A DNA stretch of 32,000 bases, from positions 1 to 32,000 of the forward strand of contig JAUSKK010000051.1 in NCBI GenBank assembly GCA_030649345.1, given 5' to 3'. Below the pieces are notes generated by a model. The model was given only the letters and a program-made list of their open reading frames with translations. It ran no database searches and was not told where the DNA came from. The position numbers and the translations under genes were made by a program. Positions 2,384-32,000 of the stretch are shown here, piece by piece (the stretch's first letter is position 1; every line of letters begins with the position of its first letter). The DNA comes from Candidatus Iainarchaeum sp. (GTDB taxonomy: Archaea > Iainarchaeota > Iainarchaeia > Iainarchaeales > 0-14-0-20-34-12).

Positions 2384-2499
2384 GCGTGAGCTTTAAAAAT
2401 CATTCTTTTCAATATACGTAGATTCTAGATGGAATTCAATTTTTTTCGATTTCTTTTAAGTTTTTTAAGTATTATTTGCGTTAAAAGGAGGGCTTTTGC

Positions 2500-4114: not shown

Positions 4115-7100
4115 CTTTGAAAAGTAAAATAACTAAACCTAAAAAAGTTTTAATCCTTGGTTCAGGTGCTTTAAAAATTGGGCAAGCTGGAGAATTTGAT
4201 TATTCAGGGTCTCAGTGCTTGAAGGCTTTGAAAGAAGAAGGAATTCAAACTGTTTTAATTAATCCCAATATTGCAACCATTCAAACCAGTCATGAGTTAG
4301 CAAATGAAATTTATTTTTTACCGGTTACTTGTGATTTTGTAGAAAAAGTTATTGAAAAAGAAAAGCCTGACGCTATTATGTTAGCCTTTGGCGGACAAAC
4401 TGCACTCAATTGCGGTATTGAATTATTCAAAAAAGGAATTTTGAAAAAACACAATGTGCAAGTTCTAGGAACTCAAGTTCAAACTATTATTGATACTGAA
4501 GATCGAGAATTATTTAAAAAAAAGCTGGCTGAAATTCAAGTAGATATGCCCAAAAGCATTGCTTGTGAAACTTTAAATGAATCATTAAAAGCAGCTGAAA
4601 AAATTGGTTATCCTGTATTAATTCGCGGAGCATTTGCTTTAGGCGGAGAAGGATCTGGTTTAGCCAATACAAAAACAGAACTCGAAGGATTGGTTGGAAA
4701 AGCATTAACGATTTCTCCGCAAATTTTAGTAGAAGAATACTTGAAAGGCTGGAAAGAAATAGAATACGAAGTTGTACGAGACCAATATGGCAATTGCATT
4801 ACTGTGTGCAATATGGAAAATTTTGATCCTATGGGAATTCACACAGGAGAAAGTATTGTGGTGGCGCCTTCTCAAACTTTGTCCAATGGAGAATATCATT
4901 TATTGAGAACAATTGCCATTCGAACCATTCGGCATTTAGGAATTGTAGGAGAATGCAATATTCAGTATGCTTTAAATCCAACTAAAAAAGAATATAGAGT
5001 CATTGAAGTAAATGCAAGACTATCCAGAAGCAGTGCTTTGGCCAGTAAAGCTACAGGTTATCCTTTGGCATTTATTGCAGCTAAGTTAGCTTTAGGAAAA
5101 AGTTTATTGGAATTAAAAAATTCAGTAACTCAAAAAACAACTGCTTTTTTTGAACCTGCTTTAGATTATTGTGTGGTTAAATTTCCGAGATGGGATTTAG
5201 AAAAATTCCAAAAAGTCAGCAAATATTTAGGTTCGGAAATGAAAAGTGTCGGAGAAGTCATGGCTATTGGACGAACTTTTGAAGAAGCCATCCAGAAAGC
5301 CATTCGAATGCTGGACTTAAATATTGAAGGATTTACTGAACATTCGTTTGAATTCAAAGATGTAGAACAAGAACTCAAACATCCGACCGATAAACGTTTT
5401 TTTGCAATCTATCAGGCTTTAGATAAAGGATTAAGTCCTAAAAAAATCCATGAATTGACTGGAATAGACTCTTGGTTTTTGCATAGATTAAATCACATTT
5501 TTGACGTCAAAAATAAACTAGAACAATATCCTTTGACGAAAGATTTATTGTTGGAAGCTAAAAAAACAGGATTTAGTGACAAAGGAATTGCAGTTACTGT
5601 AAAAAAGAAAGGACAAGAAATTAGTCAATTACGAAAAAAATGGAAAATTCAGCCAGTCGTAAAACAAATTGATACTCTGGCAGCAGAATGGCCTGCGAAA
5701 ACAAATTATTTGTATTTAACCTATCATGGAATAAAAGACGATATTGTTTTCAAACAAAAAAAGAATGTCATTGTCATTGGTTCAGGGCCTTACAGAATTG
5801 GTTCCAGTGTAGAATTTGACTGGTGTTCAGTCAATGCTGTGAATACTTTAAACAAAACAGGATATACGACTACTTTGATTAATTTTAATCCAGAAACAGT
5901 CAGCACAGATTACGATATTTGTGATCGCTTGTATTTTGAAGAACTATCTTTTGAGCGATTGTTAGATATTTATGAAAAAGAAAAACCTTTGGGTTTAATT
6001 TTAAGCACTGGCGGACAAATTGCCAATAACTTAGCGCCTTATTGTAAGCAATTTGGTTTGAAAGTTTTGGGAACCCAGCCTCAAAATATTGATTTAGCTG
6101 AAAATAGACACAAGTTTAGTGCTTTATGTGATGACTTAAAAATTGGCCAGCCGGAATGGAGTGAACTTGTAACTGAAAAACAAGCCGTGGAATTTTCAGA
6201 CAAAGTTGGATTTCCTGTATTGGTTAGGCCGAGTTATGTTTTAAGCGGTCAAGCTATGCGGGTTGCATTTAATGAAACTGACTTACAAGAATATTTGAAG
6301 ACTGCAGTTCAAGTTTCCAAAAAATATCCTGTGACTATCTCTAAATTTATCATCAATGCCAAAGAAATTGAAGTCGATGCCGTAGCTCAAAATGGGAAAG
6401 TGTTATGTTATGCTGTCACAGAACATGTCGAAAATGCAGGCGTACATTCCGGGGATGCTACCATTGTAATGCCGGCTCAAAAAATTTATATTCAAACAGC
6501 CAATGAAGCCTTAAATATTACTGGCCAGTTAGCTAAGGCATTGAAGATTACAGGGCCGTTTAATGTACAATTTTTGGCTAAAAATAATAAAGTCAAAGTC
6601 ATTGAATGTAATCTAAGAGCCAGCCGAAGTTTTCCGTTTGTCAGCAAAGTTACTGGGTCTAATTTTATTGAAGTGGCTGTGAAAGCCATTATGAAACAAA
6701 AACAAAAATTGAAACAAATTAGTCCATTTGAATTAAATCATGTAGGAATTAAAGCCCCGCAATTTTCATTTTCTAGATTACGCGGAGCTGATCCTGTGTT
6801 AAGTGTAGAAATGGCTTCTACAGGTGAAGTTGCTTGCTTAGGTACAGATATTTCGGATGCATTTTTGAAATCCATTATAGCCACAGGATTTAAGCTGCCG
6901 AAAAAAAATATTTTAATTTCTATTTCAGGAGATAAAAACAGAATTAAATTACTGGAACAATTAAAACATTTAAAAAAACAAGGATTTGTACTTTACGGAA
7001 CAGAACATACTGCTGAGTTTTATTCAAGTCAAAAAATTCCTGTAAAAATGGTTCATAAATTGCATGAAAAAAAAGAACCCAATATTGGAACATATTTAAG

Positions 7101-7320
7101 AGAAAAGAAAATTGATTTAGTAGTATGCGTTCCAGAAAATGTTACACCCAAAGAATTATTGGATGAATTTGAAATCCGAAGAATTGCTGTAGACTTTGGA
7201 GTTCCATTAATTACCAATATTCAGTTAGCTAAATTGTTTTTTAATTCATTGACTCGCATGAGCTCTAAAGAATTTGAAATCCAGCCGTGGAGTTATTATT
7301 TAAAAAACATGAAAAAATAA
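4111..7320 (+). CDS. carB: carbamoyl-phosphate synthase large subunit
   Basis: 1069 aa with duplicated ATP-grasp halves: KKVLILGSGALKIGQAGEFDYSGSQ and KNVIVIGSGPYRIGSSVEFDWCSV. IEVNARLSRSSALASKATGYPLA is present, and there is an MGS-like C-terminal domain. Confidence 0.95.
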   Translation: MTLKSKITKPKKVLILGSGALKIGQAGEFDYSGSQCLKALKEEGIQTVLINPNIATIQTSHELANEIYFLPVTCDFVEKVIEKEKPDAIMLAFGGQTALNCGIELFKKGILKKHNVQVLGTQVQTIIDTEDRELFKKKLAEIQVDMPKSIACETLNESLKAAEKIGYPVLIRGAFALGGEGSGLANTKTELEGLVGKALTISPQILVEEYLKGWKEIEYEVVRDQYGNCITVCNMENFDPMGIHTGESIVVAPSQTLSNGEYHLLRTIAIRTIRHLGIVGECNIQYALNPTKKEYRVIEVNARLSRSSALASKATGYPLAFIAAKLALGKSLLELKNSVTQKTTAFFEPALDYCVVKFPRWDLEKFQKVSKYLGSEMKSVGEVMAIGRTFEEAIQKAIRMLDLNIEGFTEHSFEFKDVEQELKHPTDKRFFAIYQALDKGLSPKKIHELTGIDSWFLHRLNHIFDVKNKLEQYPLTKDLLLEAKKTGFSDKGIAVTVKKKGQEISQLRKKWKIQPVVKQIDTLAAEWPAKTNYLYLTYHGIKDDIVFKQKKNVIVIGSGPYRIGSSVEFDWCSVNAVNTLNKTGYTTTLINFNPETVSTDYDICDRLYFEELSFERLLDIYEKEKPLGLILSTGGQIANNLAPYCKQFGLKVLGTQPQNIDLAENRHKFSALCDDLKIGQPEWSELVTEKQAVEFSDKVGFPVLVRPSYVLSGQAMRVAFNETDLQEYLKTAVQVSKKYPVTISKFIINAKEIEVDAVAQNGKVLCYAVTEHVENAGVHSGDATIVMPAQKIYIQTANEALNITGQLAKALKITGPFNVQFLAKNNKVKVIECNLRASRSFPFVSKVTGSNFIEVAVKAIMKQKQKLKQISPFELNHVGIKAPQFSFSRLRGADPVLSVEMASTGEVACLGTDISDAFLKSIIATGFKLPKKNILISISGDKNRIKLLEQLKHLKKQGFVLYGTEHTAEFYSSQKIPVKMVHKLHEKKEPNIGTYLREKKIDLVVCVPENVTPKELLDEFEIRRIAVDFGVPLITNIQLAKLFFNSLTRMSSKEFEIQPWSYYLKNMKK

Positions 7321-7399: not shown

Positions 7400-7918
7400 T
7401 TGTCTGAACTTGAATGGATTACTTTAGTGAATGAACACGATACAATACTCGGAAAAGAAGATCGAGTGATTGCCCGTAAAAAAGCTTTACTGCATCGCGG
7501 TGTTGGAGTCTTGGTCTTTAATTCCAATCAAGAATTATTGGTTCACAAACGATCTTCCGAGAAAACAGTGTATCCTAATTTGTTTGATGTTATTGTAGGC
7601 GGCAGTGTTTTATGGAACGAAAGTTACTCACAAGCAGCTATTCGTGAACTCCAAGAAGAAATTGGATTGAATTGTTTAGATTTAAAATTTTTATTTCCAT
7701 TCAAATATCGTTCCATTGAACGCAATCTAAATTTTGAAATTTTTACCTGCATCATGAATCAAAAAGCAGTATTGCAAAAAGAAGAAATCAAATACAGTTT
7801 ATTTTTGAATCTAGATCAAGTGATTGAATTAATGAAAAGCGAAGGATTTTGTCCTTACGCGCACGGAATCATGAACGAGTACTTTAAATTAATTCACAAG
7901 CCTTTGGTGATTGAATGA
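7400..7918 (+). CDS. Nudix hydrolase, paralog of 3608..4114
   Basis: Nudix box GGSVLWNESYSQAAIRELQEEIGL, and LLHRGVGVLVFNSNQELLVHKRSSEKTVYPNLFD aligns with the first copy. TTG start preceded by AGGTGA. A T7 tract lies at 7379-7385 after carB. Confidence 0.8.
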   Translation: MSELEWITLVNEHDTILGKEDRVIARKKALLHRGVGVLVFNSNQELLVHKRSSEKTVYPNLFDVIVGGSVLWNESYSQAAIRELQEEIGLNCLDLKFLFPFKYRSIERNLNFEIFTCIMNQKAVLQKEEIKYSLFLNLDQVIELMKSEGFCPYAHGIMNEYFKLIHKPLVIE

Positions 7919-10818: not shown

Positions 10819-11238
10819 ATGAGTCACTTAATATATTTAGATACTGGCATATTCATTGGATTTTTACTAAAAGAAAGCCCAGAATACAGATCTTGTAAAG
10901 AAATAATTACTGCAATCAGAGAACAAAAACAAAAAGTACTTTTTTCAGTCTTAAATATTTCTGAAGTATTTTATATTCTGCAACGAGAACATGTAAGTAC
11001 AGATAGAATTAGAAAAGCTATTGAAGAATTAGCAAAACTACCTTATGTTACACTAATTGAAGTACCTATTAAAATTGAACTAAATGCGCTTAAAATTGCA
11101 GAAAAATATAATATTGACTTAACCGATGCAACAACCTATTTGCTAATGAAAGAAAACAAAATAAAATTCATTTATGCTTTAGACAAACATTACGACCGAT
11201 TCAAAGACCTTCAAAGGCTAACTGAATTAAAATATTAG
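10819..11238 (+). CDS. PIN-domain ribonuclease toxin (VapC-like), second locus
   Basis: LIYLDTGIFIGFLL N-terminal acidic motif, ISEVFYIL, and DLTDATTYLLM. Size is 139 aa. GGTGA lies upstream. Confidence 0.75.
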   Translation: MSHLIYLDTGIFIGFLLKESPEYRSCKEIITAIREQKQKVLFSVLNISEVFYILQREHVSTDRIRKAIEELAKLPYVTLIEVPIKIELNALKIAEKYNIDLTDATTYLLMKENKIKFIYALDKHYDRFKDLQRLTELKY

Positions 11239-11296: not shown

Positions 11297-12574
11297 ATGA
11301 AACAATTTTTCATTATTGGAACTTTACTTGTTTTATTAATTGCTGGATGCACTACCCCAATTCAAGTACCTGGAAACAATGATGAACCAGAACCAGTTAT
11401 TACCGAAAAACCAGTTCTAGATGACAGCCAAGCTACAATTGAAGGAGTTAACCAAATTGTACAAGGTAATAGTCAATTTGGATTCAATCTATATTCTAAA
11501 TTACCTCAAGATTCAAGCAATGTATTCTTTTCACCGTATAGTATTAGCACAGCCATTGCTATGGCTTATGAAGGAGCACAAGAACAAACAGCTCAAGAAA
11601 TACAAACAGTATTCGGTTTCCCAGTAGACAATTCAGTTTTACGTTCCGCAAATGCAAGTATTTACAATAAATACAATAAAAAAGATTTGAATTACATTTT
11701 GTCTACAGCCAATGCTTTATGGGTGCAACAAGATTATACTTTGTTAGATAATTACAAAAATGTTGCCCAAAATTCTTACGGCGGAAAAGCAAGCAATGTA
11801 GACTTTGTTAACCAAACTGAACAAACAAGGCAAACTATTAATTCATGGGTTGAAAATGAAACTTATGGAAAAATCAAAAATTTATTCGGGCCAGGAAGTT
11901 TAACTCCAGATTATCGTTTGGTTATCACAAACGCAATTTATTTTAAAGGAAAATGGAAAGAAAAATTCAACGAAGAATCCACGGAAAATCAAGACTTTAC
12001 TTTAGCCAATGGAAGTAAAGTACAAGTTCCAATGATGAGACAATTTAATGAAGATTTTAGATATGCTGAAACCAATGAATGGAAAGCGCTTGAAATGGAT
12101 TACGAAGGAAACGATTTATCTATGTTAATTTTATTGCCCAAAGAAAATAATCTAACTGAACTTGAACAAAATTTAACTCTAGAATCTGTAAAAAATTTAA
12201 AAGAACAAATGAGCTATGAAACAACCAATGTATTTTTTCCAAGATTTAAATTCAATACAAAATATTCACTCAATGATTCTTTAGGCCAATTGGGAATGCC
12301 GACTGCGTTTTCAAATGCTGCTAATTTTTCAGGAATTACAGGTTCTCAAGACTTAAAAATTGGAATTGTAATTCACCAAGCATTTGTGGAAGTCAATGAA
12401 AAAGGAACTGAAGCAGCTGCAGCTACCGGGATAGGATTTGAATTAACCTCTGCTCCATTTGAACCGGAAGAACCTAAAGAATTCAAAGCAGACCATCCAT
12501 TTATTTTCGTTATTCAAGACACAGAAACAGGCAATATTTTGTTTATGGGAAAAGTCAATAATCCTTTAAATTAA
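11297..12574 (+). CDS. serpin (serine protease inhibitor), predicted lipoprotein
   Basis: Signal peptide plus lipobox LLIAGC. Serpin core FFSPYSISTAIAMAYEGAQEQTAQEI. Inhibitory-type hinge EKGTEAAAATG. C-terminal DHPFIFVIQD...GKVNNP. Confidence 0.9.
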   Translation: MKQFFIIGTLLVLLIAGCTTPIQVPGNNDEPEPVITEKPVLDDSQATIEGVNQIVQGNSQFGFNLYSKLPQDSSNVFFSPYSISTAIAMAYEGAQEQTAQEIQTVFGFPVDNSVLRSANASIYNKYNKKDLNYILSTANALWVQQDYTLLDNYKNVAQNSYGGKASNVDFVNQTEQTRQTINSWVENETYGKIKNLFGPGSLTPDYRLVITNAIYFKGKWKEKFNEESTENQDFTLANGSKVQVPMMRQFNEDFRYAETNEWKALEMDYEGNDLSMLILLPKENNLTELEQNLTLESVKNLKEQMSYETTNVFFPRFKFNTKYSLNDSLGQLGMPTAFSNAANFSGITGSQDLKIGIVIHQAFVEVNEKGTEAAAATGIGFELTSAPFEPEEPKEFKADHPFIFVIQDTETGNILFMGKVNNPLN

Positions 12575-15567: not shown

Positions 15568-16365
15568 ATGAAGCCCAAATTTAGTGGAAAAGGAATTTTG
15601 TCTAAAAAACATGGGGCTGTTTTAAGCAGATTGTTGAAAGGAAAACAAAAACGAGCCATTGCCCGGGAATTGAATCTCAGTGAAGCTGGTGTGGAAACCC
15701 GATTGAATATTCTTTGGCCGTATCTTGGAGAAAGTACTCAGCAGTTGATTGAATCTAGGCGAAGAAGTTCAAAAACAGAAAAACCTACTTTGGATTCAAA
15801 AAAATTAATTGATTCTTTAGATCGGGAATTAGAAAGTAATCCAAATCTAAGTACTTTGAAAAAATTAGCAGAAGAATTTAAAGTTAAACCAGCAGTTATT
15901 TTGCATGAATTGAAATTGGCTGGAGTTTTTTTTAAACCAGAACTTGCAAGAAAATGGCTGGAATTCTGGAAAGAAGTAGCACGTGTAAGAAAATTACATT
16001 TAGTAGATCAAGCTCAAGTACTCCGAATTAGTCCGGAAAAAGTGCGTAAATTGCAGCGTCGATTTCAGCAAGGATTTCAAATAAAAGAAATGCGAACTTT
16101 TTTAAAAGAATTAACTAGAGCCGGTTGGTGGAAAAGTGATTATAGGTCTAAGCTTGGAGGGCGTGCAATTCAAAAAAGAGATTGGCAAGTCAAAGAAGAT
16201 CTGGCTTTACTGAATAGTTTAGCTGAAGCATCCAGTGAAACATATGCCGCTTTGATGGGTTCACTTTTTAATCAATACGCCATCCAAGAGTATGCATTCA
16301 GGAAAAAAAATAAGCTGCCAATTCCCAAGTTAATTGCAACTATTGTCGAGGTAGATTCTACATGA
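15568..16365 (+). CDS. ORFan with an N-terminal LuxR/GerE-type helix-turn-helix
   Basis: LSKKHGAVLSRLLKGKQKRAIARELNLSEAGVETRLNILWPYLG follows the LuxR-type pattern L-x2-R-E-x2-V-L-x-L-x3-G-x3-K-E-I-A-x2-L-x-I-S-x2-T-V. I do not recognise the remaining ~200 aa. Confidence 0.55.
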   Translation: MKPKFSGKGILSKKHGAVLSRLLKGKQKRAIARELNLSEAGVETRLNILWPYLGESTQQLIESRRRSSKTEKPTLDSKKLIDSLDRELESNPNLSTLKKLAEEFKVKPAVILHELKLAGVFFKPELARKWLEFWKEVARVRKLHLVDQAQVLRISPEKVRKLQRRFQQGFQIKEMRTFLKELTRAGWWKSDYRSKLGGRAIQKRDWQVKEDLALLNSLAEASSETYAALMGSLFNQYAIQEYAFRKKNKLPIPKLIATIVEVDST

Positions 16366-18609: not shown

Positions 18610-19377
18610 ATGAAACCTAAAAGAATGGTACGTATCCAGCGGCCTAAAAGAAGATTAAAACAAAGACAGCCAAGATCAAGGCCTTTGGCGCGATTTCGGC
18701 ATTTGCAGGAATACAATAAAGTTCATGGAGCTGAAATTTTAAGAAAAGTATTTGAACGATTGTCATTACAGGCAAGAAAAAGAATTGCCGTTAGTCCAGC
18801 AGTGTATGTGAAACCAGTTAAATTTGAAAGTGAATTATGTGCACGCTTGGAGACATTTGCACAAAAATGTCCTCAAGCTGAGCGAATTTTTGTGCGAGGA
18901 AATATTGTTTCTAGTACGCATAAAAATAGACCTGAAAAATGGAATATTGCACCTCGCGGACATTTTGATCCAAAAACAGGAGAACTGCTGTGGGATACAC
19001 CGCCTTACTCCAATCGAGAATCATGGGCGGAAACAGAATGGCTAATTTATCCAACTCGTGGAAAAATGAAAATTAACCAAGATGGTGTGGTTGAAGTAAG
19101 AAAAATGGGTGGAAATACAATTGTAGTAGATATTCACAGTGCTGGATTATTGGACCTTGAATTAAGACGTGAAGGACCTGTATTTTTAGACTTTGCCAAA
19201 AATAAAGTGGATGGAAATGCTCCACAGAATTTTGCAGCAGTGCAAGAATTGATAGTTCGAATTATGCGGCAAAGAGAATTAGCTCGAATGTCGCATGGAA
19301 ATACTTTAAAACTAAGATATGTCACTTGGAGAGATCAACCTGAGAAAATGGAATTTTACGATTGCCTACTAACGTAA
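18610..19377 (+). CDS. ORFan with an arginine-rich N-terminal arm
   Basis: The 255-aa ORF begins MKPKRMVRIQRPKRRLKQRQPRSRPLARFRHL. I recognise no family. The competing in-window ORFs are short shadows. Confidence 0.5.
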   Translation: MKPKRMVRIQRPKRRLKQRQPRSRPLARFRHLQEYNKVHGAEILRKVFERLSLQARKRIAVSPAVYVKPVKFESELCARLETFAQKCPQAERIFVRGNIVSSTHKNRPEKWNIAPRGHFDPKTGELLWDTPPYSNRESWAETEWLIYPTRGKMKINQDGVVEVRKMGGNTIVVDIHSAGLLDLELRREGPVFLDFAKNKVDGNAPQNFAAVQELIVRIMRQRELARMSHGNTLKLRYVTWRDQPEKMEFYDCLLT

Positions 19378-22385: not shown

Positions 22386-23804
22386 CTATTGTTTTAGTTC
22401 AGTAATCAATACTTTTAATTCAGTAAATTCTTCAATTGCATATTTAGGCCCTTCTCTACCAAAACCAGAATCTTTAATTCCACCGTACGGCTGATTGTCT
22501 GCACGAAAAGTTGGAGTTTCATTAATTAAAACTCCGCCGACATCTAATTCTTCAAAGGCTTGCAAAGCCTTATTGGAGTCTTGAGTAAATATTCCAGCCT
22601 GCAAACCATACTTTGAATCATTTACTAAATTCAATGCTTGCTTAAAAGAATCATAACTAACCAAAACTTTGACTGGGGCAAAAATTTCTTCCGAATAACA
22701 TTTGCTTTTTGGATTTACATTGGCAAGCAAAGTTGGATAAAATAAATTTTTTTCTCTTTTCCCGCCCAGCAAAATTTTTGCACCTTCTTGGACTGCTTCC
22801 TGAAGCCATTGTTCTACACGTTCAGCTGAACTTAAGTCAATCATAGGCCCAACCATTACTTCAGGGTCTGCTGGGTTTCCGATTTTTAATTTTTGAATTT
22901 CTTGAATTAATAATACTTTAAATTTTTCATACACTTTTTTTTGTACAAAAATTCTTTGCGAACTAATACAGGATTGTCCAGCATATGCATACATGGCTGG
23001 CGCTAATTTTTTTGCAGCAAGCTCTAGATTAGCGTCATCGTGAACAATAACTGCCGCATTACCTCCCAATTCCAGCAAGACGCGTTTTTTGCCAGCATTA
23101 TTTTTTAAATTCCAGCCCACACTGGCAGAACCAGTAAAAGATAAAACTTTTATTCGTTCATCTTGAATTAAAAAATCCAAAGATTGTTTATCACTGCGAT
23201 CAATTGGAAGAACTGATATTGCTTGTTTTGGCCAACCGGACTCCAATGCAATTTCAGCTAATTTAAATGAACTTAAAGGAGTACGCTCTGCTGGCTTTAG
23301 AATAATGGGACAACCGGCAGCAATGGCAGGCCCTAGTTTATGACAAACTAAATTTAATGGAAAATTAAATGGCGAAATTCCTATGATTGAACCGATGGGA
23401 AAACGTTTAATTTTTCCTGTTTTACTTGAATCAATTTCAATAATTTGTTCAGTTAGTTTCAAAGATTCTTCTGCAGACAAACGCAAAGTAACTATAGCTC
23501 GGTCTACTTCTTTTAAAGCCAAAGAAATAGGTTTTCCAGCTTCTTCTGAAATTATTTTAGCCAATTCACTTTTTTGTTGTGTAATTAAATCAGCCATTTT
23601 GAGCAAAATTTTATTTCTTTCCAGTAAACTTAAATTTTTAGTAATCTGAAAAGATTCAGTGGTTAATTCCACTGCTTTTTGCACTTGTTCAAAAGAAGGC
23701 ATGCATACTGTTGCAATTTCTGTTTGATTCCATGGATTCACTACAGGATAAGTTTCTTGGGTTTCAGTCCAAGTTCCAGCCAATAAAAATTTCTGAGCTA
23801 ACAT
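22386..23804 (-). CDS. NAD(P)+-dependent aldehyde dehydrogenase
   Basis: FTGSASVGW, general base in LELGGNAAVIV, catalytic Cys in YAGQSCISSQRIFV, and EEIFAPV. Confidence 0.9.
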   Translation of the reverse strand: MLAQKFLLAGTWTETQETYPVVNPWNQTEIATVCMPSFEQVQKAVELTTESFQITKNLSLLERNKILLKMADLITQQKSELAKIISEEAGKPISLALKEVDRAIVTLRLSAEESLKLTEQIIEIDSSKTGKIKRFPIGSIIGISPFNFPLNLVCHKLGPAIAAGCPIILKPAERTPLSSFKLAEIALESGWPKQAISVLPIDRSDKQSLDFLIQDERIKVLSFTGSASVGWNLKNNAGKKRVLLELGGNAAVIVHDDANLELAAKKLAPAMYAYAGQSCISSQRIFVQKKVYEKFKVLLIQEIQKLKIGNPADPEVMVGPMIDLSSAERVEQWLQEAVQEGAKILLGGKREKNLFYPTLLANVNPKSKCYSEEIFAPVKVLVSYDSFKQALNLVNDSKYGLQAGIFTQDSNKALQAFEELDVGGVLINETPTFRADNQPYGGIKDSGFGREGPKYAIEEFTELKVLITELKQ

Positions 23805-23856
23805 TTTAGAATTGGCTTGAAAACAATATATAAATCTAATTCAGCCTAGTTTTTGT

Positions 23857-24405
23857 ATGAGCAATTTTATTTTAGCAATTTCCGGAAGCCCAAAAAAAGG
23901 AAATACAGACACTATGCTAGAGCAAACAGTTAAGGGAGCAGAAAGCACTGGCTTGAAAGTAAAAACTATTTTTTTGCGTGACTTAAACTTTTCAGGCTGC
24001 TGCGGCTGGACAGATTGTTTTTATGAAGGCTATTGTAAAATAGATGATGAAATGCAAAACGTGTATAAAGATTTATTGACTTGTTCTGGCTTGATTTTAG
24101 CCAGCCCAAATTATTTCAACAGCGTTTCTGGTTTAATGAAAAATTTTATTGATCGAACCAATCCCTATGCTTTGAAAAAACAATTGGCTGGAAAAAAAGC
24201 AATTTTGTTGACTTGTGGCGGTTGGTCTTTGGACAGTATTCAAAAAACAGAAGATTATTTAAGAGAAATTTGCAGAATTCATAAAATTGAAGTTTTGGGT
24301 GCACAGAAAATCAAAGCAGATTATCCGAATGAAGCTCAAGAGCAAATTAAAGAATTAGAAAACTGTTTTGAATTAGGAAAACTGTTAGGCAAAAGTTTGA
24401 TTTAA
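23857..24405 (+). CDS. NADPH-dependent FMN reductase / iron-sulfur flavoprotein-like protein
   Basis: Flavodoxin-like start ILAISGSPKKGNTDTML, compact Cys cluster FSGCCGWTDCFYEGYC, and SPNYFNSVSG. ATATATAAAT lies about 25 nt upstream of the ATG with no Shine-Dalgarno. Confidence 0.7.
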   Translation: MSNFILAISGSPKKGNTDTMLEQTVKGAESTGLKVKTIFLRDLNFSGCCGWTDCFYEGYCKIDDEMQNVYKDLLTCSGLILASPNYFNSVSGLMKNFIDRTNPYALKKQLAGKKAILLTCGGWSLDSIQKTEDYLREICRIHKIEVLGAQKIKADYPNEAQEQIKELENCFELGKLLGKSLI

Positions 24406-25608: not shown

Positions 25609-26661
25609 ATGCGAAAACCTGTTTCCAGAAGACCTAGCGCAAAAGTTCATCGAATTGCAAGAATGGTAATTTTAGGTAGTTTAGCTGGAGCTAATTTAGG
25701 ACCACATTCAGCAAAACCTTCAACTCCAGTTGTACAGCGTGCAGGAAGATTAAGACACGATGCATTTTTGCAAGAACAACTGAAAGCCAGGTCGCGTGGA
25801 ATTGAAAAAGTACGAAAAGAAGAAGCACGCAAAAAAGCAGAAGAATTAGAACGACAAAGATTGGAAGAAGTTCGAATAAAAAAAGAAGCAGAAGAAAGAA
25901 TTGCACGAAAAGAAAAATGGCAAAAAAGTTTGGAAACATTAAAACGGGTTACACTGCAAATAAGACGTACGCGAATTTCCAGCAGATTTATGCGACAAAA
26001 TTTGTCTAAATTTAAAAAATATTTAGATGAAAATGCAAGAGCATTGCATAAAAAAATGCGAAAACATGAATGGGAAACTGGCGGGGTAGTTTTAATCGAA
26101 CGTGGAAAAGTAAAAATGATTGATTTACCGGATCCAGAAGATACAAAAATACGCGGATGGTTAGCAGAATTAAAGAAAGGGAATCTAACTAATTTTTCAG
26201 ATATTCGTACAGCGATTCTGGAAAGATTTGAACGAGAAAAAGTAGGGGCTAGACCCAGTATTCAAATTGAAGTAGATGCAGATATTGAGGAAGCCCATCA
26301 GATTCAAAAAGAACTTGCTGAAGAAAGAAATGGGAAACCTGTTTCAAAAAATAGAAGAAAATCTATTTTGGATTTTTTAAAATACCATTTAGATATTGTT
26401 GGCCGGCATAGTTACAGTGGGTTGGCCAATAATTACTTAATTGATGAAGCCTATGCTTCTGCTTTTGATGAACAATCCGACAGTAGATATTTTGGAAGCT
26501 GGCATGTGCATACTCTTGGAAGCCCAGCCAGTAAACAAGATATTCAAGGAAGTACTGCATGGGGCCCTAAAATTGTTTTTTCACCTACTCGAACCGGAAT
26601 GAAAGTGCATATTCTTCAATTAGGTCGAGTAACGAATACCTACACGTATACTTTTAGATAA
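25609..26661 (+). CDS. ORFan: basic N-terminus with a hydrophobic segment, a K/E-rich coiled coil, and a C-terminal domain with a JAB/MPN-like H-x-H...S-x-x-D motif
   Basis: MRKPVSRRPSAKVHRIARMVILGSLAGANLGPHSA, then about 70 aa of K/E/R-rich helix, then EWETGGVVLIERGKV and GSWHVHTLGSPASKQD (nt 26503-26541). Confidence 0.5.
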   Translation: MRKPVSRRPSAKVHRIARMVILGSLAGANLGPHSAKPSTPVVQRAGRLRHDAFLQEQLKARSRGIEKVRKEEARKKAEELERQRLEEVRIKKEAEERIARKEKWQKSLETLKRVTLQIRRTRISSRFMRQNLSKFKKYLDENARALHKKMRKHEWETGGVVLIERGKVKMIDLPDPEDTKIRGWLAELKKGNLTNFSDIRTAILERFEREKVGARPSIQIEVDADIEEAHQIQKELAEERNGKPVSKNRRKSILDFLKYHLDIVGRHSYSGLANNYLIDEAYASAFDEQSDSRYFGSWHVHTLGSPASKQDIQGSTAWGPKIVFSPTRTGMKVHILQLGRVTNTYTYTFR

Positions 26662-26751: not shown

Positions 26752-27048
26752 ATGAAAGGTTATGCAATTGAAAAAGTTGAAAATGGAAAGTTAGTCAAAA
26801 TTAAAGTAGATTTTGATGAACGCATTAATTCAATTCAAATCTTGGGAGACTTTTTCTTGCATCCCGAAGAATCCATTTTTGAAATGGAAAAACAACTCAA
26901 AGGAATTCCGTCCAGTCAAAGTCAGGAATCGATTCAGTTGATTTTAGAAAATTATTTGAAAACAAGTCATGCCAAATTAATTGGAATGACTGCAGAAGCA
27001 ATTGCACGCACTGTAAAAAAGGCAATGAATGAAGGTGTTCAAAAATGA
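26752..27048 (+). CDS. lplB: lipoate-protein ligase C-terminal-domain protein (LplB-type)
   Basis: 98 aa. GKLVKIKVDFDERINSIQILGDFFLHPEE matches the LplA C-terminal domain pattern (GDFF). It overlaps the catalytic-domain gene by ATGA. Confidence 0.7.
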   Translation: MKGYAIEKVENGKLVKIKVDFDERINSIQILGDFFLHPEESIFEMEKQLKGIPSSQSQESIQLILENYLKTSHAKLIGMTAEAIARTVKKAMNEGVQK

Positions 27049-27797
27049 CTTGGCGTGTCGTAAAACTAGAAGAACATTCAGCTGAATTAAATATGGCAAT
27101 CGATGAAGCTGTTTGTGAATTTGTTGCAAACGGAAAATCTAAAGCAACTATTCGTTTCTATAAATGGAAACCGAGTGCAGTCAGTATTGGATATTTTCAA
27201 AGCTTAGAAGATGAGGTTGACGTACGATTATGCAAAGATTTAGGATTTGATTTTGTTCGAAGAAGAACTGGCGGCGGAGCAGTCTATCATGACGCTAAAG
27301 GAGAAATAACATACAGTGTAATTGCTCCTGAAAAAATTTTCCCAAAAGGAATTACGGAAAGTTATCATGTAATTTGCGGATGGATTGTGGATTCATTAAA
27401 CGAGCTGGGAATCACTGCAGAGTTTAAGCCTATTAATGACATTATTACACATGGAAAAAAGATTTCTGGAAATGCTCAAACAAGAAGAAACGGAGTACTA
27501 TTACAGCACGGTACTATCTTGTATGATTTAGATGTAGAAACCATGTTTCGCTTGTTAAAAGTTCCTAAAGAAAAAATCTCCGATAAAATGATCTCCGATG
27601 TCAAACAAAGAGTCACTAGTATTCGAGATATTAAAGGAGATTCTGTTTCTGAAATGAATGTTGCAGCTGCATTGGAAAAAGGATTCACAAATGGGAAAGA
27701 ATTTGAGTATGGGAAATGGACCAAAGAAGAACTTGTACGAGCACATGAATTGGTTAAAGAAAGATATTCTAAACAAGAATGGAATTTCATGCGATAA
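27045..27797 (+). CDS. lplA: lipoate-protein ligase A catalytic domain
   Basis: RRRTGGGAVYHD, the GKKISGNAQ lysine motif, and VSIGYFQ. At 250 aa it lacks the C-terminal domain, which is encoded separately upstream. Confidence 0.85.
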   Translation: MTWRVVKLEEHSAELNMAIDEAVCEFVANGKSKATIRFYKWKPSAVSIGYFQSLEDEVDVRLCKDLGFDFVRRRTGGGAVYHDAKGEITYSVIAPEKIFPKGITESYHVICGWIVDSLNELGITAEFKPINDIITHGKKISGNAQTRRNGVLLQHGTILYDLDVETMFRLLKVPKEKISDKMISDVKQRVTSIRDIKGDSVSEMNVAAALEKGFTNGKEFEYGKWTKEELVRAHELVKERYSKQEWNFMR

Positions 27798-27838
27798 ATA
27801 CTGAAAAGCTTTTAAAGAACAAAACAAAGAATACTTGT

Positions 27839-28150
27839 ATGCCTTTACCTATTAAACGAAGACCTAAATTGCGAGTTGTTCAATTTCATGAAATGGATCG
27901 AGAACAAGCTAGAGCTGATTTGCGCAGACGAATTGATTTAATGAATCAAGTAGGCAAACATTTATTGCCGGAAGTTCGGTTAGTGAATGCATTAACTGAA
28001 CTTAGGATAGGCAATTTGGATCCTCAAGTGATTGCTGCTTTACGATCTCTTGCAAAAAATGGAACACGAAATCAGCAAGCAAGAGCACGAAAGGCATTGG
28101 GTAAATTTAAACTAGGCAAAAGACAAGTTTCCAAAGAAGGACATGCTTAA
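27839..28150 (+). CDS. small basic ORFan, possibly HEAT-like helical repeat
   Basis: The internal ATG at 27839 (MPLPIKRRPKLRVVQFH...) is preferred, because the track start at 27779 overlaps lplA. DPQVIAALRSLAKNGTRNQQARARKALGK resembles a HEAT/PBS-lyase-type repeat. Confidence 0.45.
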   Translation: MPLPIKRRPKLRVVQFHEMDREQARADLRRRIDLMNQVGKHLLPEVRLVNALTELRIGNLDPQVIAALRSLAKNGTRNQQARARKALGKFKLGKRQVSKEGHA

Positions 28151-28187
28151 GGAAAATCATTTATTCTTGTTCTAACCTAAACTAGAT

Positions 28188-28946
28188 ATGCCTAAACATG
28201 GAGTCATTTCAAGTTTACGGAGAAAAAAACCAGGTGAACGTGGATATGAGCACACGGTTAAATTAAGAAAACAATTAAAAGAAGATTTACGGTTGGCACG
28301 TAGATTGCATAATCCAAACAATGAGTCATACGGCCAGCTTGGAACAAACTATAGGCGTCTTAGGCTAATGTTCAAAGCACATTTTGAAGAATTTTTAGCA
28401 AGAAAAAAAAGGCAAGTCAGAGAAGAACGAACACATAATTCAAATGCCAAACTCAGATGGCTGGATATTGGCCCAGGTTTACCGGAAAATTTTTTGTCTG
28501 ATTTTGATAAAATAGATCCATCCAGACTATTGGTTGAATTTCATACTTTAGGCCCTCAAGCAGTTAATCCCAAACGAAAACCTGAAATGCGAATGCGGGA
28601 AATTAAATTAAGCGAAGGGAGAACAGAACAAATTCGGAGACACGAATTAAATCCAGACTATAATCCATTGTTTACTCATCACGTAGGCGCTATTGAAACC
28701 TATGATCCCAGAAAACTGGGCGGAAAATTTGATTGTATTGTGTCAACCGGAACTCTTTTTTATGGAAAACAAATTACCGAAGTTCTTCCCAAAATTTGCG
28801 ATTTATTAAATCATCAAGGCCGTGCATTTTTACAAGTTGGATTTGATGTTCCTGCTTTGATTGAATTTTTAAGAACTAACCTTCCAGTAAATTATGAATT
28901 ACGGCAATTTAATAAAACTTTTTTAATGATTGAACGAGTTCACTAA
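28188..28946 (+). CDS. ORFan, class I methyltransferase-fold-like, paralog A
   Basis: Basic N-terminus (SSLRRKKPGERG). Motif I-like RWLDIGPGL, motif II-like KFDCIVSTG, and motif III-like LLNHQGRAFL. It aligns along most of its length with 30440..31261. Confidence 0.55.
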   Translation: MPKHGVISSLRRKKPGERGYEHTVKLRKQLKEDLRLARRLHNPNNESYGQLGTNYRRLRLMFKAHFEEFLARKKRQVREERTHNSNAKLRWLDIGPGLPENFLSDFDKIDPSRLLVEFHTLGPQAVNPKRKPEMRMREIKLSEGRTEQIRRHELNPDYNPLFTHHVGAIETYDPRKLGGKFDCIVSTGTLFYGKQITEVLPKICDLLNHQGRAFLQVGFDVPALIEFLRTNLPVNYELRQFNKTFLMIERVH

Positions 28947-28949
28947 GTA

Positions 28950-30377
28950 TTAGTGTTTCTTTTTGCCTTGGTGTACACATTTGCCTAAAGCATCTTCTGC
29001 TGCTTCCATAATGGCTTCCGGCATGGTTGGATGCGGATGAATTACTGAAGCTAAATCTTCTAATTGGGCAGCCATTTCAATAGCTAAAGCACATTCACTA
29101 ATTAAGTCTGAAGCATGTTCGCCTACAATTTGGATTCCTAAAACAATTTGAGATTCTTGGTCAGCAACAATTTTTACAAAACCTTCTGTTTTATTCATGG
29201 TTAAAGCTCGACCTAAAGCTTTGAATGGAAACTTTCCAATAACTACAGTATATCCTTGCGCTTTGGCTTCATGTTCTTGCAATCCAACATAAGCAATTTC
29301 TGGATCTGTAAATACTACGGCTGGAACCACGTGATTATCAAAAGCAACATTATGGCCGGCAATCACTTCAGCTGCAATCTTTGCTTGCCTGGAAGCTTTA
29401 TGCGCTAACATTGGATTTCCTGTAATGTCTCCAATGGCAAAAATTCGATTATCGGTTGTTCTGCATTGTTCATTAATTATCATAAAACCTTTTTCATCCA
29501 ATTGAACTTTAGTGGTGTCTAATTGAAGTCCTTCCGAGTAAGGTTTTCTTCCAACTGCAACCAAAACTTTTTCAACTTCGATTGAAAATTTTTCTCCTTT
29601 ATTTTTTGGATTCACCGACAAAATAACTGAGTTGTCTTTTTTTTCACATCCTTCAACAGCGGATTGTAGTAAAATTTTAACTCCATATTTTTCGAGTTGC
29701 TTTTGTAATGGCACAATTAATTCAGGGTCTGTACCCGGCAATAACTGGTCTCCTAATTCAATGATTGTAACTTTGCATCCAAGTTTAGCGTATACAATTC
29801 CTAATTCTAATCCAATGTATCCTCCGCCGACTACTGCCAAAGATTCTGGAGCATCGCGTAAAGCCAAAGCGCCTGTTGAACTTAAAATTTGGCGTTCATC
29901 AAATTTCATGAAAGGCAATTCAACTGGTTTAGAACCAGTGGCAATAATACAGTAATCAAATTCTACAGTTGCTACATTTTTGTCATTCGGAATTCCAAGA
30001 GTACGAGAATCTTTAAAGAATGCTTTTCCTTTCAATATTTCCACACCATAATTTTTGCATAAAAAAGCAATTCCTTCAACCAATTTTTTGACTACATCTT
30101 TTTTCCAAGACTGCATTTTTTCAGTATCCAAAGAAACAGCTTGAGCACTAATTCCAAAGAGTTGACTTTCTTCAATATTTCGAAAAAATGAGCTTGCGTG
30201 AATTAATGCTTTGCTGGGAATGCAGCCAACATTCAAACAAACTCCGCCCAATTCTGTGTCTTCAATTAAAATTACCGATTTACCTAATTGTGCTGCGCGT
30301 AAAGCTGCTACATATCCACCTGGGCCGGAGCCAATAATGGCTACATCGTATTTGACTGCAATATCACCCATCACCAT
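28950..30377 (-). CDS. lpdA: dihydrolipoyl dehydrogenase (E3)
   Basis: YDVAIIGSGPGGY, redox disulfide GGVCLNVGCIPSK, a second Rossmann fold LAVVGGGYIGLE, and the C-terminal HPHPTMPE His-Glu dyad. Confidence 0.92.
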   Translation of the reverse strand: MVMGDIAVKYDVAIIGSGPGGYVAALRAAQLGKSVILIEDTELGGVCLNVGCIPSKALIHASSFFRNIEESQLFGISAQAVSLDTEKMQSWKKDVVKKLVEGIAFLCKNYGVEILKGKAFFKDSRTLGIPNDKNVATVEFDYCIIATGSKPVELPFMKFDERQILSSTGALALRDAPESLAVVGGGYIGLELGIVYAKLGCKVTIIELGDQLLPGTDPELIVPLQKQLEKYGVKILLQSAVEGCEKKDNSVILSVNPKNKGEKFSIEVEKVLVAVGRKPYSEGLQLDTTKVQLDEKGFMIINEQCRTTDNRIFAIGDITGNPMLAHKASRQAKIAAEVIAGHNVAFDNHVVPAVVFTDPEIAYVGLQEHEAKAQGYTVVIGKFPFKALGRALTMNKTEGFVKIVADQESQIVLGIQIVGEHASDLISECALAIEMAAQLEDLASVIHPHPTMPEAIMEAAEDALGKCVHQGKKKH

Positions 30378-30439
30378 GTTACATCACAATAAGTAATGTA
30401 TATTATAAAGTTTGAATTTAAAATAGTAATTGATTGATT

Positions 30440-31261
30440 ATGCTCAAAAGACCTAGAATTCGACAGCCTGTGAATAAACGAATTGAAAAACAAAGAAAAC
30501 GCGGAGTAATTCCAAGTTTGTATGGATTTTTTGACCGAAAATATTCACATTTAATTGATTCACCGCGAAAAAGATTGAAGGACAGTATTCGAATGGCCCG
30601 CAAACATCAAATGCCTACAGGCACGTATTACAGCACGGTTGGCGGACATTATGCAAATATGGATCACTATTTTGGAAAACTATTTGAAAGCTTTATTCAA
30701 GGACAAATTAAATTAACTCAAGCACAAGGACTTAAGCCTGTGCGAATTTTAGATATTGGTCCAGGACTAACAGAACGTTTTATGCATGGCTTGCGTAGAT
30801 TGGATCCAACTTTAAAGCATATGCAAATTCACACCATTTCTCCGGAGCAAATTAATCCAAAAACAAGAAGAACGCAAAATGTTCAAAGAGTTTTGACTTT
30901 AAGCAGTGGAGAAAGATTACCTGTCTTTGAACAAGAACCCAATCCAAACTACGAAAAAAGATTAAGACACCATGTTCAAGCGATTGAAACAATTAATCCT
31001 AAAAAATTCAAACGAAAATTTGATGTAATTGTTTCAGTTTGGGGAGGTACACGATATGCTATTGAACCAGTAACTGAAACTATTATTAAAGTCGCACGAT
31101 TATTGAATCCGAAAGGCAAAGCATTTTTGCATACAGCTACATTGCGTCCTGCTGATTTAGAAATATTGGAAAAAGAATTGGGAAAAAATTATGACATAAA
31201 AATAACAGATGGATCGAGAAAAACATTTGCTACGGCAATTATTATTACACGAAAAAGATGA
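30440..31261 (+). CDS. ORFan, class I methyltransferase-fold-like, paralog B
   Basis: ATG at 30440 (MLKRPRIRQPVNKRIEKQRKRG...); the track start at 30434 is a TTG. It carries RILDIGPGL, KFDVIVSVWG and LLNPKGKAFL. HHVQAIETINPKK matches HHVGAIETYDPRK in paralog A. Confidence 0.55.
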   Translation: MLKRPRIRQPVNKRIEKQRKRGVIPSLYGFFDRKYSHLIDSPRKRLKDSIRMARKHQMPTGTYYSTVGGHYANMDHYFGKLFESFIQGQIKLTQAQGLKPVRILDIGPGLTERFMHGLRRLDPTLKHMQIHTISPEQINPKTRRTQNVQRVLTLSSGERLPVFEQEPNPNYEKRLRHHVQAIETINPKKFKRKFDVIVSVWGGTRYAIEPVTETIIKVARLLNPKGKAFLHTATLRPADLEILEKELGKNYDIKITDGSRKTFATAIIITRKR

Positions 31262-31305
31262 TAAATTCAAAATGTTACGAAAAAGAATTACTGGAAAAAA
31301 TAATC

Positions 31306-32000
31306 TTAAATTACGTCAACCAGCATTAGCCCAGGATCTTGCAAATATTTAATGACGTCATTCAAGAAACGTGCTGCTTCTGCTCCGTCAATAATTCTGT
31401 GATCAAAGGTTACTGTCAAATTCATCATTTTGCGTACAACAATTTCGCTGTTGCGTACAACTGCTCGGTCTACAATTTTATAAATTCCTAAAATTCCAAC
31501 TTCTGGATAATTCAATACAGGCGTAGCCATAATTCCGCCAGCTGAACCAATATTAGTAATTGTGAATGTTCCGCCATGCATGTCTTCTGGTTTTAGTTTT
31601 CGTTCTCTGGCTAAAGTTGCTTTTTCTTGAATTTCTTTAGCTAATTGTAAAATGCTTTTTTTGTCTGCATCTTTTAAAACAAAAACCATTAATCCTTCAG
31701 CAGTGTCTACAGCAATTCCTATATTGTAATATTTTTTCAAAACAATTTCTTTGGTTGTGTCATCTACACTGGCATTCAAAAAAGTATGATCTTTCAAGGA
31801 AGCAACCAAAGATTTGATAATAAAAGGCAAAAAAGTTAGTTTGACTCCGCGTTTTTCAGCATCTGCTTTTTGTCTTTCTCGTAAAATAACCAAGTCTGTT
31901 ACATCGCATTCATCTAAATGAGTCACTTGCGGTGCAGTATACACAGACTGAATCATATGGTCTGCAACTGCTTTTCGCACACCCTTAAATGGAATGCGTT
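31306..32000 (-). CDS. 2-oxoacid dehydrogenase E2 acyltransferase, catalytic domain (N-terminal part outside window)
   Basis: The frame stays open to the window edge (..PFKGVRKAVADHM). The catalytic DHRIIDGAEAARFL motif, GGTFTITNIGSAGG and the P-x-x-N motif are present. Confidence 0.88.
   Translation of the reverse strand, partial: RIPFKGVRKAVADHMIQSVYTAPQVTHLDECDVTDLVILRERQKADAEKRGVKLTFLPFIIKSLVASLKDHTFLNASVDDTTKEIVLKKYYNIGIAVDTAEGLMVFVLKDADKKSILQLAKEIQEKATLARERKLKPEDMHGGTFTITNIGSAGGIMATPVLNYPEVGILGIYKIVDRAVVRNSEIVVRKMMNLTVTFDHRIIDGAEAARFLNDVIKYLQDPGLMLVDVI

Follow-up and report, generated by a model that had tools for sequence, protein, structure and literature searches.

Two methyltransferase-like paralogs bracket the dihydrolipoyl dehydrogenase gene of a Candidatus Iainarchaeum archaeon, probably through local gene duplication

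The window analysed here is a stretch of 32,000 nucleotides from Candidatus Iainarchaeum sp. (GenBank assembly GCA_030649345.1, contig JAUSKK010000051.1, positions 1 to 32,000), which towards its end carries genes of a 2-oxoacid dehydrogenase (OADH) complex together with two open reading frames, copy A and copy B, that are the subject of this report. The features of the locus are collected in Table 1. The E2 gene extends beyond the end of the window. In an independent Logan assembly (L037, from SRR13727527), which is 100% identical to window positions 28717-32000, the full E2 is 425 residues long with lipoyl and E3-binding domains, E1β lies upstream of it and a 273-residue copy B product is called. 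Because L037 carries the identical order, E1β-E2-copy B-lpdA-copy A, the layout is not an assembly chimera. The coordinates agree with an earlier note on this DNA, which placed copy B antisense inside a gap of 928 nt between E2 and E3 and the end of copy A 3 nt from the lpdA stop.

Table 1. Features of the lpdA locus (window coordinates)
Feature	Coordinates	Strand	Description
lplB (LplA-C)	26752..27048	+	NF053749 LplB, 67.7 bits against a cutoff of 65
lplA (LplA-N)	27045..27797	+	Best match NF053750 LplA_large, 2.4e-70, 236.7 bits, below the cutoff of 480
Orphan basic ORF	27779..28150	+	123 aa, or 103 aa from the ATG at 27839; between lplA and copy A
Copy A	28188..28946	+	ORF, 252 aa; DPANN-specific class I methyltransferase-like protein, LDIGPG variant
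lpdA (E3, dihydrolipoyl dehydrogenase)	28950..30377	-	TIGR01350, 4e-170, 566 bits against a cutoff of 409; Pfam Pyr_redox_2 and Pyr_redox_dim
TATA-like box TATATTATAAA	30399..30409		Putative; in the 56-62-nt divergent spacer
Inverted repeat, left arm TTTGAATTTA	30411..30420		Perfect, 10 nt; unique in the window
Copy B	30440..31261	+	ORF, 273 aa; paralog, antisense between E2 and E3
Inverted repeat, right arm TAAATTCAAA	31262..31271		Directly after the copy B stop codon
Two oligo-T runs	31280..31300	-	T6 at 31300-31295 and T5 at 31284-31280; they closely follow the E2 stop
E2, 3' part (dihydrolipoamide acyltransferase catalytic domain)	31306..32000	-	PF00198 at 7e-86

Upstream of copy A and on the same strand, lplB and lplA are predicted to encode a bipartite archaeal lipoate-protein ligase, a system that has been described previously (PMC3904984); PF21948 matches the stretch 26752..27797 at 2.4e-56. 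The locus thus shares E1β-E2 (by way of L037), E3 and the overlapping lplB-lplA pair with the Thermoplasma acidophilum-type arrangement, an E1α-E1β-E2-E3 operon accompanied by LplA-C and LplA-N (PMC3904984), but differs from it in that E2 and E3 are separated by an unrelated antisense gene which does not belong to that system and which the operons of relatives lack. The orphan ORF at 27779 has no Pfam or NCBIfam match, nor any homolog among the small ORFs that adjoin members of the copy A/copy B family elsewhere. Those ORFs are unrelated to it, and a conserved upstream partner was rejected on this ground. The window's basic orphan ORFs (1682, 15568, 18610, 25609 and 27779) likewise proved unrelated to the family and to each other, the best cross match having E = 0.02.

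Copies A and B are true paralogs, as the earlier note had proposed: BLASTP aligns them over 244 residues at 36% identity (E = 5e-42), far beyond chance, and all of the shared blocks that had been listed (GVI[SP]SL, LDIGPGL, NP[DN]Y, HHV.AIET..P.K...KFD.IVS, LLN..G.AFL and NY[ED][LI]) are found in the alignment. When the genes are aligned by codon their nucleotide identity is 51%, with different codons at 43 of the 91 identical residues, and each copy keeps all 11 family-invariant residues; an old duplication with both copies retained describes the pair well. Copy A begins ~18 residues into the family N-terminus, and there is an in-frame stop upstream of it at 28173. Copy B has an alternative TTG start at 30434, which would give a product of 275 residues. 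The GC content equals that of the genome and, since there is no compositional anomaly, neither appears to have been recently acquired.

The AlphaFold (AF2) models of copy A (pLDDT 82.5, pTM 0.79) and copy B (pLDDT 90.3, pTM 0.88) both show the class I methyltransferase pattern, with secondary-structure elements assigned by DSSP in the order β1-αA-β2-(hairpin)-β3-β4-αD-β5-αE-β6-β7. Together with the Foldseek matches, they support the methyltransferase fold that the order of the blocks had suggested. The best 50 PDB matches in each search were all SAM methyltransferases or methyltransferase-like domains in larger proteins (FASN and SAMTOR), and the best matches in the PDB and BFVD were SAM methyltransferases with E values of 1e-5 to 1e-7. 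Foldseek probabilities were 1.00 for nearly all top matches (lowest PDB value 0.98), with low TM-scores of 0.33-0.44 and large r.m.s. differences for both models. For copy B there were 680 PDB matches at E ≤ 1e-3, among the best of which were BpumL, AprA MT2, CurJ, NmbA, NNMT and Bud23. A profile search against PDB sequences gave marginal matches alone (best E = 0.05). Neither copy is matched by an NCBIfam model, and the scores against Pfam Methyltransf_23 (PF13489; 2.6e-5 and 24.4 bits for copy A, 17.5 bits for copy B) lie below the gathering threshold of 27.

The glycine loop is atypical, as had been noted, with LDIGPG in place of GxGxG; the canonical motif I used for comparison was (V/I/L)(L/V)(D/E)(V/I)G(G/C)G(T/P)G. 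All 15 GPG-type family members share L-D-I-G-P-G without exception, the column of the third glycine is variable (P, T, N, L and others) and relatives with a canonical loop align in register with it. In class I methyltransferases an acidic residue at the C-terminal end of β2 binds the ribose hydroxyls of SAM. This residue is absent here, an invariant histidine (His119 in copy A) occupying the position at which the canonical relatives P0034, P0049, P0072 and P0092 have glutamate; alanine replaces the adenine-binding aspartate. SAM binding is not assured, because the canonical third glycine and the acidic residue of motif II are both missing. The subfamily has a conserved core (HHVGxxET...FDxIVS...GxAF), a β-hairpin of ~40 residues inserted between β2 and β3, and a basic N-terminal helical extension which in the models resembles a cap over the active site. 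Conservation is strongest among the residues that line the expected cofactor pocket (DIGPG, HT, HHVGxxET and FDxIVS), and from this we infer that the copies most likely retain SAM binding and methyl transfer. Their substrate would most likely have no connection with the OADH complex. Given the strong positive charge, it could be acidic or a nucleic acid; the structures nearest to the models are small-molecule and peptide methyltransferases.

With Methyltransf_23, Methyltransf_25 and Methyltransf_11 (PF13489, PF13649 and PF08241) the copies share a predicted Rossmann-like core of seven strands, in which the elements follow one another in the same order, and equivalents of motifs I (LDIG.G), III (VG..E), IV (FD.I.S) and post-V (G.AF), but they differ in the GPG loop, the histidine at the end of β2, the hairpin and the basic extension. 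Direct Pfam matches are weak for the copies but strong for their distant profile relatives, 36 of 48 of which match Methyltransf_23 (29 match Methyltransf_25 and 26 match Methyltransf_11). These distant relatives include canonical GxGxG methyltransferases of Diapherotrites/Iainarchaeota. The class I methyltransferases of the P0058 cluster from Iainarchaeum/Diapherotrites (for example RLG70225.1 and MCD6247817.1) resemble the copies in length, Arg-rich N-terminal helix, inserted region, phylum and a VH.G.AET...YD.IFS...GGEA core, but have a canonical LDVGCGS motif I and only 17-25% identity to copies A and B; they are also uncharacterised and so give no functional information. In the alignment, relatives with LDVGCGSG share the N-terminal Arg pattern and the core of the subfamily, with glutamate at the His119 position, while several relatives combine GxGxG with the motif II histidine. 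The best structural matches (E 1e-5 to 1e-7) are capped enzymes, namely BpumL (the plantazolicin N-methyltransferase; PDB entry 4kwc), AprA MT2 (6d6y), the CurJ C-methyltransferase (5thy), NNMT and HNMT, which like the models combine a Rossmann core with N-terminal helices that cover the active site; TM-scores reach only 0.35-0.44, at sequence identities of 11-18%. The copies differ from the BpumL/AprA/CurJ type in that no biosynthetic gene cluster surrounds them.

The family is small. A search of 1.84 billion proteins gave 18 representatives at E ≤ 1e-30, one of 5.8 billion gave 15 GPG-type members, and a metagenome scan for further loci found only four. All named members are from DPANN archaea (Diapherotrites/Iainarchaeum or Micrarchaeota). 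Most members are unnamed or `hypothetical', a single one of the 15 of GPG type being annotated as a class I SAM-dependent methyltransferase, and nothing specific to the family was found in the literature. It duplicates repeatedly: tandem pairs are found elsewhere (P0005/P0006, 59% identity; P0008/P0013, 54%), as is a tandem triple in L035, and a neighbour-joining tree groups copies A and B as sisters, though weakly. A direct repeat, TTCACCGGCAAC, lies downstream of the Micrarchaeota family genes; in the window it does not occur beyond chance. An anti-phage defence or phage-derived methyltransferase was considered as a candidate, and neither copy has a PADLOC or PHROG match at E ≤ 0.01. In our view, these proteins are ordinary uncharacterised lineage-specific methyltransferases.

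In the explanation that we favour, and which we consider probable as a whole, copies A and B are real genes, old paralogs within a small class I SAM-dependent methyltransferase subfamily of DPANN archaea, which came to lie around lpdA by local duplication and have no partnership with OADH. The earlier note had instead suggested a functional link, such as modification or regulation of the OADH complex; the targets of methylation or regulation in this lineage might then be E2, E3 or the lipoylation machinery. Taken alone, the placement of both copies within the cluster lplB-lplA-ORF-copy A/lpdA/copy B/E2 could hint at such a link; copy A lies on the same strand as lplB-lplA, with gaps of 37-41 nt, and might be transcribed together with them, and copy B and lpdA may have a promoter region in common. 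Relatives do not support it. At about ten other family loci no OADH or lipoylation gene was found in the fetched flanks, which covered 5-10 kb per locus where the contig allowed (several contigs were just 3-7 kb). The neighbours there are instead pyrimidine (pyr operon) genes, ATP synthase subunit D, Thy1...PGK/GAPDH, Fic, STT3/glycosylation genes and toxin-antitoxin genes, none of which gave a functional clue by Pfam, and in the same sample two further probable paralogs, which have the same GC content (34-35%), face pyrF and ATP synthase subunit D in convergent orientation. The family genes of relatives are thus unlinked to OADH genes, the outcome that the earlier note had itself said would count against its proposal. 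The insert is moreover missing from the OADH operons of DPANN and other relatives. E2 and E3 are contiguous in four of six (L039, L013, L010 and L014), as had been expected of a normally uninterrupted junction, with a gap of 18 nt in L039, the closest relative with E2 on its contig (lpdA 56% identical). Contiguity is not universal, since E2 and E3 are apart in L011 and L012, and apart from the same organism the searched collections held no lpdA relative of more than 56% identity. The four contiguous cases therefore point to copy B as a lineage-specific insertion. Because the family adjoins unrelated genes in relatives, the placement around lpdA looks like an accident of local duplication rather than a sign of partnership. 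The window also holds a second pair of paralogs, NUDIX genes 36% identical to each other, which bracket carB; bracketing would therefore seem to be a recurring outcome of local duplication here that arises without functional coupling. We regard a tie to OADH as highly improbable, and think it no less doubtful that the duplicated pair was later recruited as a lineage-specific lipoate/OADH regulator, whether by methylating E2, E3 or LplA or through an antisense, terminator-less copy B transcript that tunes the E2:E3 ratio, with the GPG/His site perhaps reflecting a non-SAM ligand.

A different question is whether the fold still transfers methyl groups, since the proteins could instead be binding or sensor proteins, or accept another ligand. 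The GPG loop, the motif II histidine and the alanine seen in the alignments would fit this, as would the sub-threshold Pfam scores and the presence of SAMTOR and the non-catalytic FASN pseudo-methyltransferase among the structural matches. We consider it unlikely: the residues of the expected cofactor pocket are those conserved most, which indicates a constrained ligand site, and relatives with canonical motifs grade into the subfamily, several of them keeping GxGxG beside the histidine. Active methyltransferases such as NNMT and PNMT also have a proline-containing motif I (GSGP), which counts against loss of activity. The other suggestion made earlier, a selfish insertion, would make copy B a mobile cassette with terminal inverted repeats in the E2-E3 spacer. 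It begins from a repeat that reads exactly as had been stated and bounds copy B closely, one arm lying 14 nt ahead of the TTG start and the other immediately following the stop. In L001 a paralog is flanked by an inverted repeat of 13 nt, also perfect, and the family is multi-copy with variable neighbourhoods that include toxin-antitoxin and Fic genes. Mononucleotide shuffles gave P(≥10 nt) = 0.013 for the flanking repeat, but two of the 33 window genes, copy B and one other, reach 10 nt, and A/T-only palindromic hexamers (TTTAAA and AAATTT) are abundant in the intergenic DNA and ease such matches. Its description as weak evidence was apt, and the shuffling and the within-window control rule it out as a decisive mobile-element end. 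The flanks of copy A have only 8-nt matches, at chance level, and the flanking repeats of copies A and B are unrelated, each occurring once in the window; nine other family genes tested had repeats of just 4-8 nt. No target-site duplication is present, Pfam identified neither a transposase nor an integrase among the neighbours, and the searches for phage and defence genes and the GC content speak against a cassette, as does the 36% identity of the copies, which implies no recent mobility. The repeat thus stands and its reading as a mobile element is, in our judgement, very unlikely to be correct.

If local duplication is the correct explanation, the locus adds another to the uncharacterised methyltransferase families of DPANN archaea that are restricted to one lineage, and would show cleanly how a local gene duplication can split a conserved operon and force lpdA onto its own promoter. 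It opens no long-standing question. The findings may be of use in annotation, the family being without a Pfam or NCBIfam model, and they advise caution: paralogs that tightly bracket a housekeeping gene need not indicate a functional link, as the NUDIX pair also illustrates.

The history that we propose begins with an ancestral copy convergent to lpdA in this lineage, from which a local duplication would have put a second copy at the E2-E3 junction, splitting the usual E1α-E1β-E2-E3 operon. The route may have been a tandem duplication of a [methyltransferase + lpdA] unit, after which one lpdA was lost, or a simple duplicative insertion. Oligo-T tracts act as archaeal terminators, and the two runs after E2 form a candidate terminator at which the E1-E2 transcript probably ends. 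For lpdA a leaderless mRNA is probable, driven by its own TATA box, which copy B would share in the opposite direction. The centre of this box lies 27 nt upstream of the lpdA ATG and 30-36 nt away from where copy B starts. The bidirectional element described earlier is present as given and its sharing is plausible. Similar A/T boxes occur at about -25 to -35 upstream of all window genes, and the divergent pair 22386(-)/23857(+) has one common box laid out as at lpdA and copy B.

Copies A and B belong to an uncharacterised, DPANN-restricted and duplication-prone branch of the class I methyltransferases in which the cofactor site is altered. Both copies score below the Pfam cutoff of 27 bits for Methyltransf_23 (24.4 and 17.5 bits), and an NCBIfam search of the two returned no match. 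Searched with a profile, 5.8 billion proteins yielded 15 members only, the named ones being Diapherotrites and Micrarchaeota MAG proteins. Among 1.84 billion representatives, searched exhaustively with an HMM, 18 reach E<=1e-30 and 121 reach E<=1e-3. When 48 more distant matches were tested, 36 matched Methyltransf_23, 29 Methyltransf_25 and 26 Methyltransf_11; those with source names are Diapherotrites/Iainarchaeum proteins annotated as 'class I SAM-dependent methyltransferase'. As seen in an alignment of the subfamily with these canonical relatives (A4), the two groups share an N-terminal Arg-rich helix, an insertion after beta2 and a VH.G..E...FD.I.S...G.A core. They differ in motif I, which is LDVGCGSG in the canonical relatives and LDIGPG in the subfamily, and at the invariant His119 of the subfamily, where several canonical relatives have Glu.

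Confident AlphaFold models of copy A (pLDDT 82.5, pTM 0.79) and copy B (pLDDT 90.3, pTM 0.88) both show the class I order of elements. Among the top matches listed by Foldseek against the PDB and BFVD, all are SAM methyltransferases or MTase-like domains, including BpumL, AprA MT2, CurJ, NmbA, NNMT, HNMT, MnmC2 and Bud23 (E 1e-5 to 1e-7), with TM-scores that are low for both models (0.33-0.44). No close characterised relative was found by family, profile or structure searches. The Pfam matches of the distant relatives, alignment A4, the models and the Foldseek results therefore support the methyltransferase fold predicted in the earlier note.

The paralogy of the two copies is clear: they share 36% identity over 244 residues (E=5e-42), and every conserved block previously named is found in the alignment. 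Their codon-aligned DNA is 51% identical, with different codons at 43 of the 91 residues that are identical between them, and all 11 family-invariant residues are kept in both. The start of copy A lies approximately 18 residues downstream of those of other family members (window 28173-28190), the corresponding N-terminal residues being absent because of an in-frame stop at 28173. The conserved MPxPExExRLEEIKAxQRKR segment is kept in copy B and lost from copy A.

Features of the locus, and TTCAC(C/T)GGCAAC repeats at other family loci (L004, L006, L007, L036)
Feature	Coordinates	Strand	Remark
lplB	26752-27048	+	ORF call and Pfam/NCBIfam
lplA	27045-27797	+	ORF call and Pfam/NCBIfam
Orphan basic ORF	27779-28150	+	between lplA and copy A
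Copy A	28188-28946	+	
lpdA (E3)	28950-30377	-	
Copy B	30440-31261	+	alternative TTG start 30434
E2, 3' part	31306 onward	-	
Repeats, L004	8778-8842		
Repeats, L007	2308-2367		
Repeats, L036	5785-5854		
Repeats, L006	5606-5626 and 6455-6520		

The 928-nt gap between E2 and E3, the 3-nt spacing of copy A and lpdA, the TATATTATAAA element and the 10-nt inverted repeat all read as first described, in a window that is AT-rich (34% GC). An independent Logan assembly (L037, SRR13727527) is 100% identical to window 28717-32000, reaches beyond it and has the gene order E1beta-E2(425 aa)-copyB-lpdA-copyA, and the arrangement is therefore no chimera. Comparison with other contigs upholds the view that copy B interrupts an E2-E3 operon. 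The two genes are contiguous or overlapping in L039, L013, L010 (Woesearchaeota) and L014 (Nanoarchaeota), and non-contiguous in L011 and L012. The lpdA of L039, where the E2-E3 gap is 18 nt, is 56% identical to that of the window, and no closer relative was found in the collections searched.

The earlier note had suggested a functional link of the two copies to lpdA or the OADH complex, and the neighbourhoods of their relatives do not support it. The family gene is convergent to pyrF within a pyrimidine operon in contig L001 and to ATP synthase subunit D in L040, adjoins Fic and ATPase genes in L002, and lies in a syntenic Thy1...VapBC...PGK-GAPDH region in L004, L006, L036 and L007; in L035 a tandem triple adjoins STT3/glycosylation genes. 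No OADH or lipoylation genes were present within the retrieved flanks of any of these loci. Relatives whose copies are unlinked to OADH genes are what the earlier note had named as a result that would speak against its reading. The sequencing run that yielded the independent copy of the window also yielded L001 and L040, and their GC content is the same (34-35%); one genome therefore probably carries four or more paralogs, of which two lie far from lpdA. A pair of NUDIX paralogs (3608-4114 and 7400-7918; 36% identity, E=1e-34) also brackets carB (4111-7320), all on the + strand, so that diverged paralogs bracket a housekeeping gene twice in 32 kb, and such an arrangement need not imply a functional tie.

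The alternative that copy B is a selfish cassette bounded by its inverted repeat (30411-30420 and 31262-31271) is a weak one. The repeat is present, with a probability of 0.013 for 10 nt or more in mononucleotide shuffles of both flanks, and in L001 a perfect 13-nt inverted repeat surrounds the paralog P0003 (CTAAACCAAGAAA at 651-663 and TTTCTTGGTTTAG at 1527-1539). However, the arms of the two loci are unrelated in sequence, no target-site duplication surrounds the copy B repeat, PHROG and PADLOC searches of copies A and B gave no match, and no transposase or integrase families were detected among the neighbouring ORFs scanned. The copy B motif occurs once, copy A has no equivalent, the L001 arms extend into neighbouring genes, and the other nine family genes tested have flanking repeats of 4-8 nt only. 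A flanking repeat of 10 nt is reached by two of 33 window genes.

In a neighbour-joining tree of the family, copies A and B form a weak genome-specific group, each tandem pair (59 and 54% identical) likewise groups by genome, and local duplication is therefore recurrent in the family. Neither copy differs from the genome in GC content. A plausible route would be that a [methyltransferase + lpdA] unit was duplicated in tandem and that the lpdA nearer E2 was then lost; a simple duplicative insertion would be equally possible.

An A/T box approximately 25-35 nt before the start codon is common upstream of window genes, and intergenic DNA of the window shows a 5-7-fold enrichment of TTTATA and TATAAA. 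The lpdA/copy B spacer contains one such box, centred 27 nt from the lpdA ATG, a distance that would suit a leaderless mRNA, and 30-36 nt from the copy B start. The same common-box layout is seen in the 52-nt spacer (23805-23856) between the divergent genes 22386-23804(-), which we take to be aldehyde dehydrogenase-like from its sequence, and 23857-24405(+, FMN reductase), where a single near-palindromic TATA box, ATTTATATATTG, lies approximately 30 nt from either start codon. Past the E2 stop, the minus strand carries a T6 and a T5 run that would suit termination of an E1-E2 transcript; no T-run lies between copy B and E2, which transcription from copy B would enter antisense.

In Micrarchaeota-type loci, two TTCAC(C/T)GGCAAC copies lie directly 3' of the family gene, 46-47 nt apart. 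In L006 the copies lie approximately 850-900 nt apart, with a 249-aa opposite-strand ORF between them, as if an insertion had separated them. The window lacks this motif.

Orphan ORFs with very basic termini (e.g. MKPKRMVRIQRPKRRLKQRQPRSRP...) occur in the window (1682-2383, 15568-16365, 18610-19377, 25609-26661 and that preceding copy A) and in L001 [2412-3131(-) and 4770-5426(+)], interleaved with core metabolic genes (fumarase/SdhA-like, lplA and, in L001, the pyr operon). The only Pfam match among them is a weak GerE HTH in 15568, and homology between them was not detectable. PIN-domain genes (1241-1657 and 10819-11238; PIN_2 and PIN) also lie among metabolic genes, and the short ORFs upstream of them (e.g. 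955-1263) may encode antitoxins. The 425-aa ORF at 11297-12574 has a lipoprotein-like N-terminal hydrophobic segment with Cys and, judged by eye, resembles a serpin.
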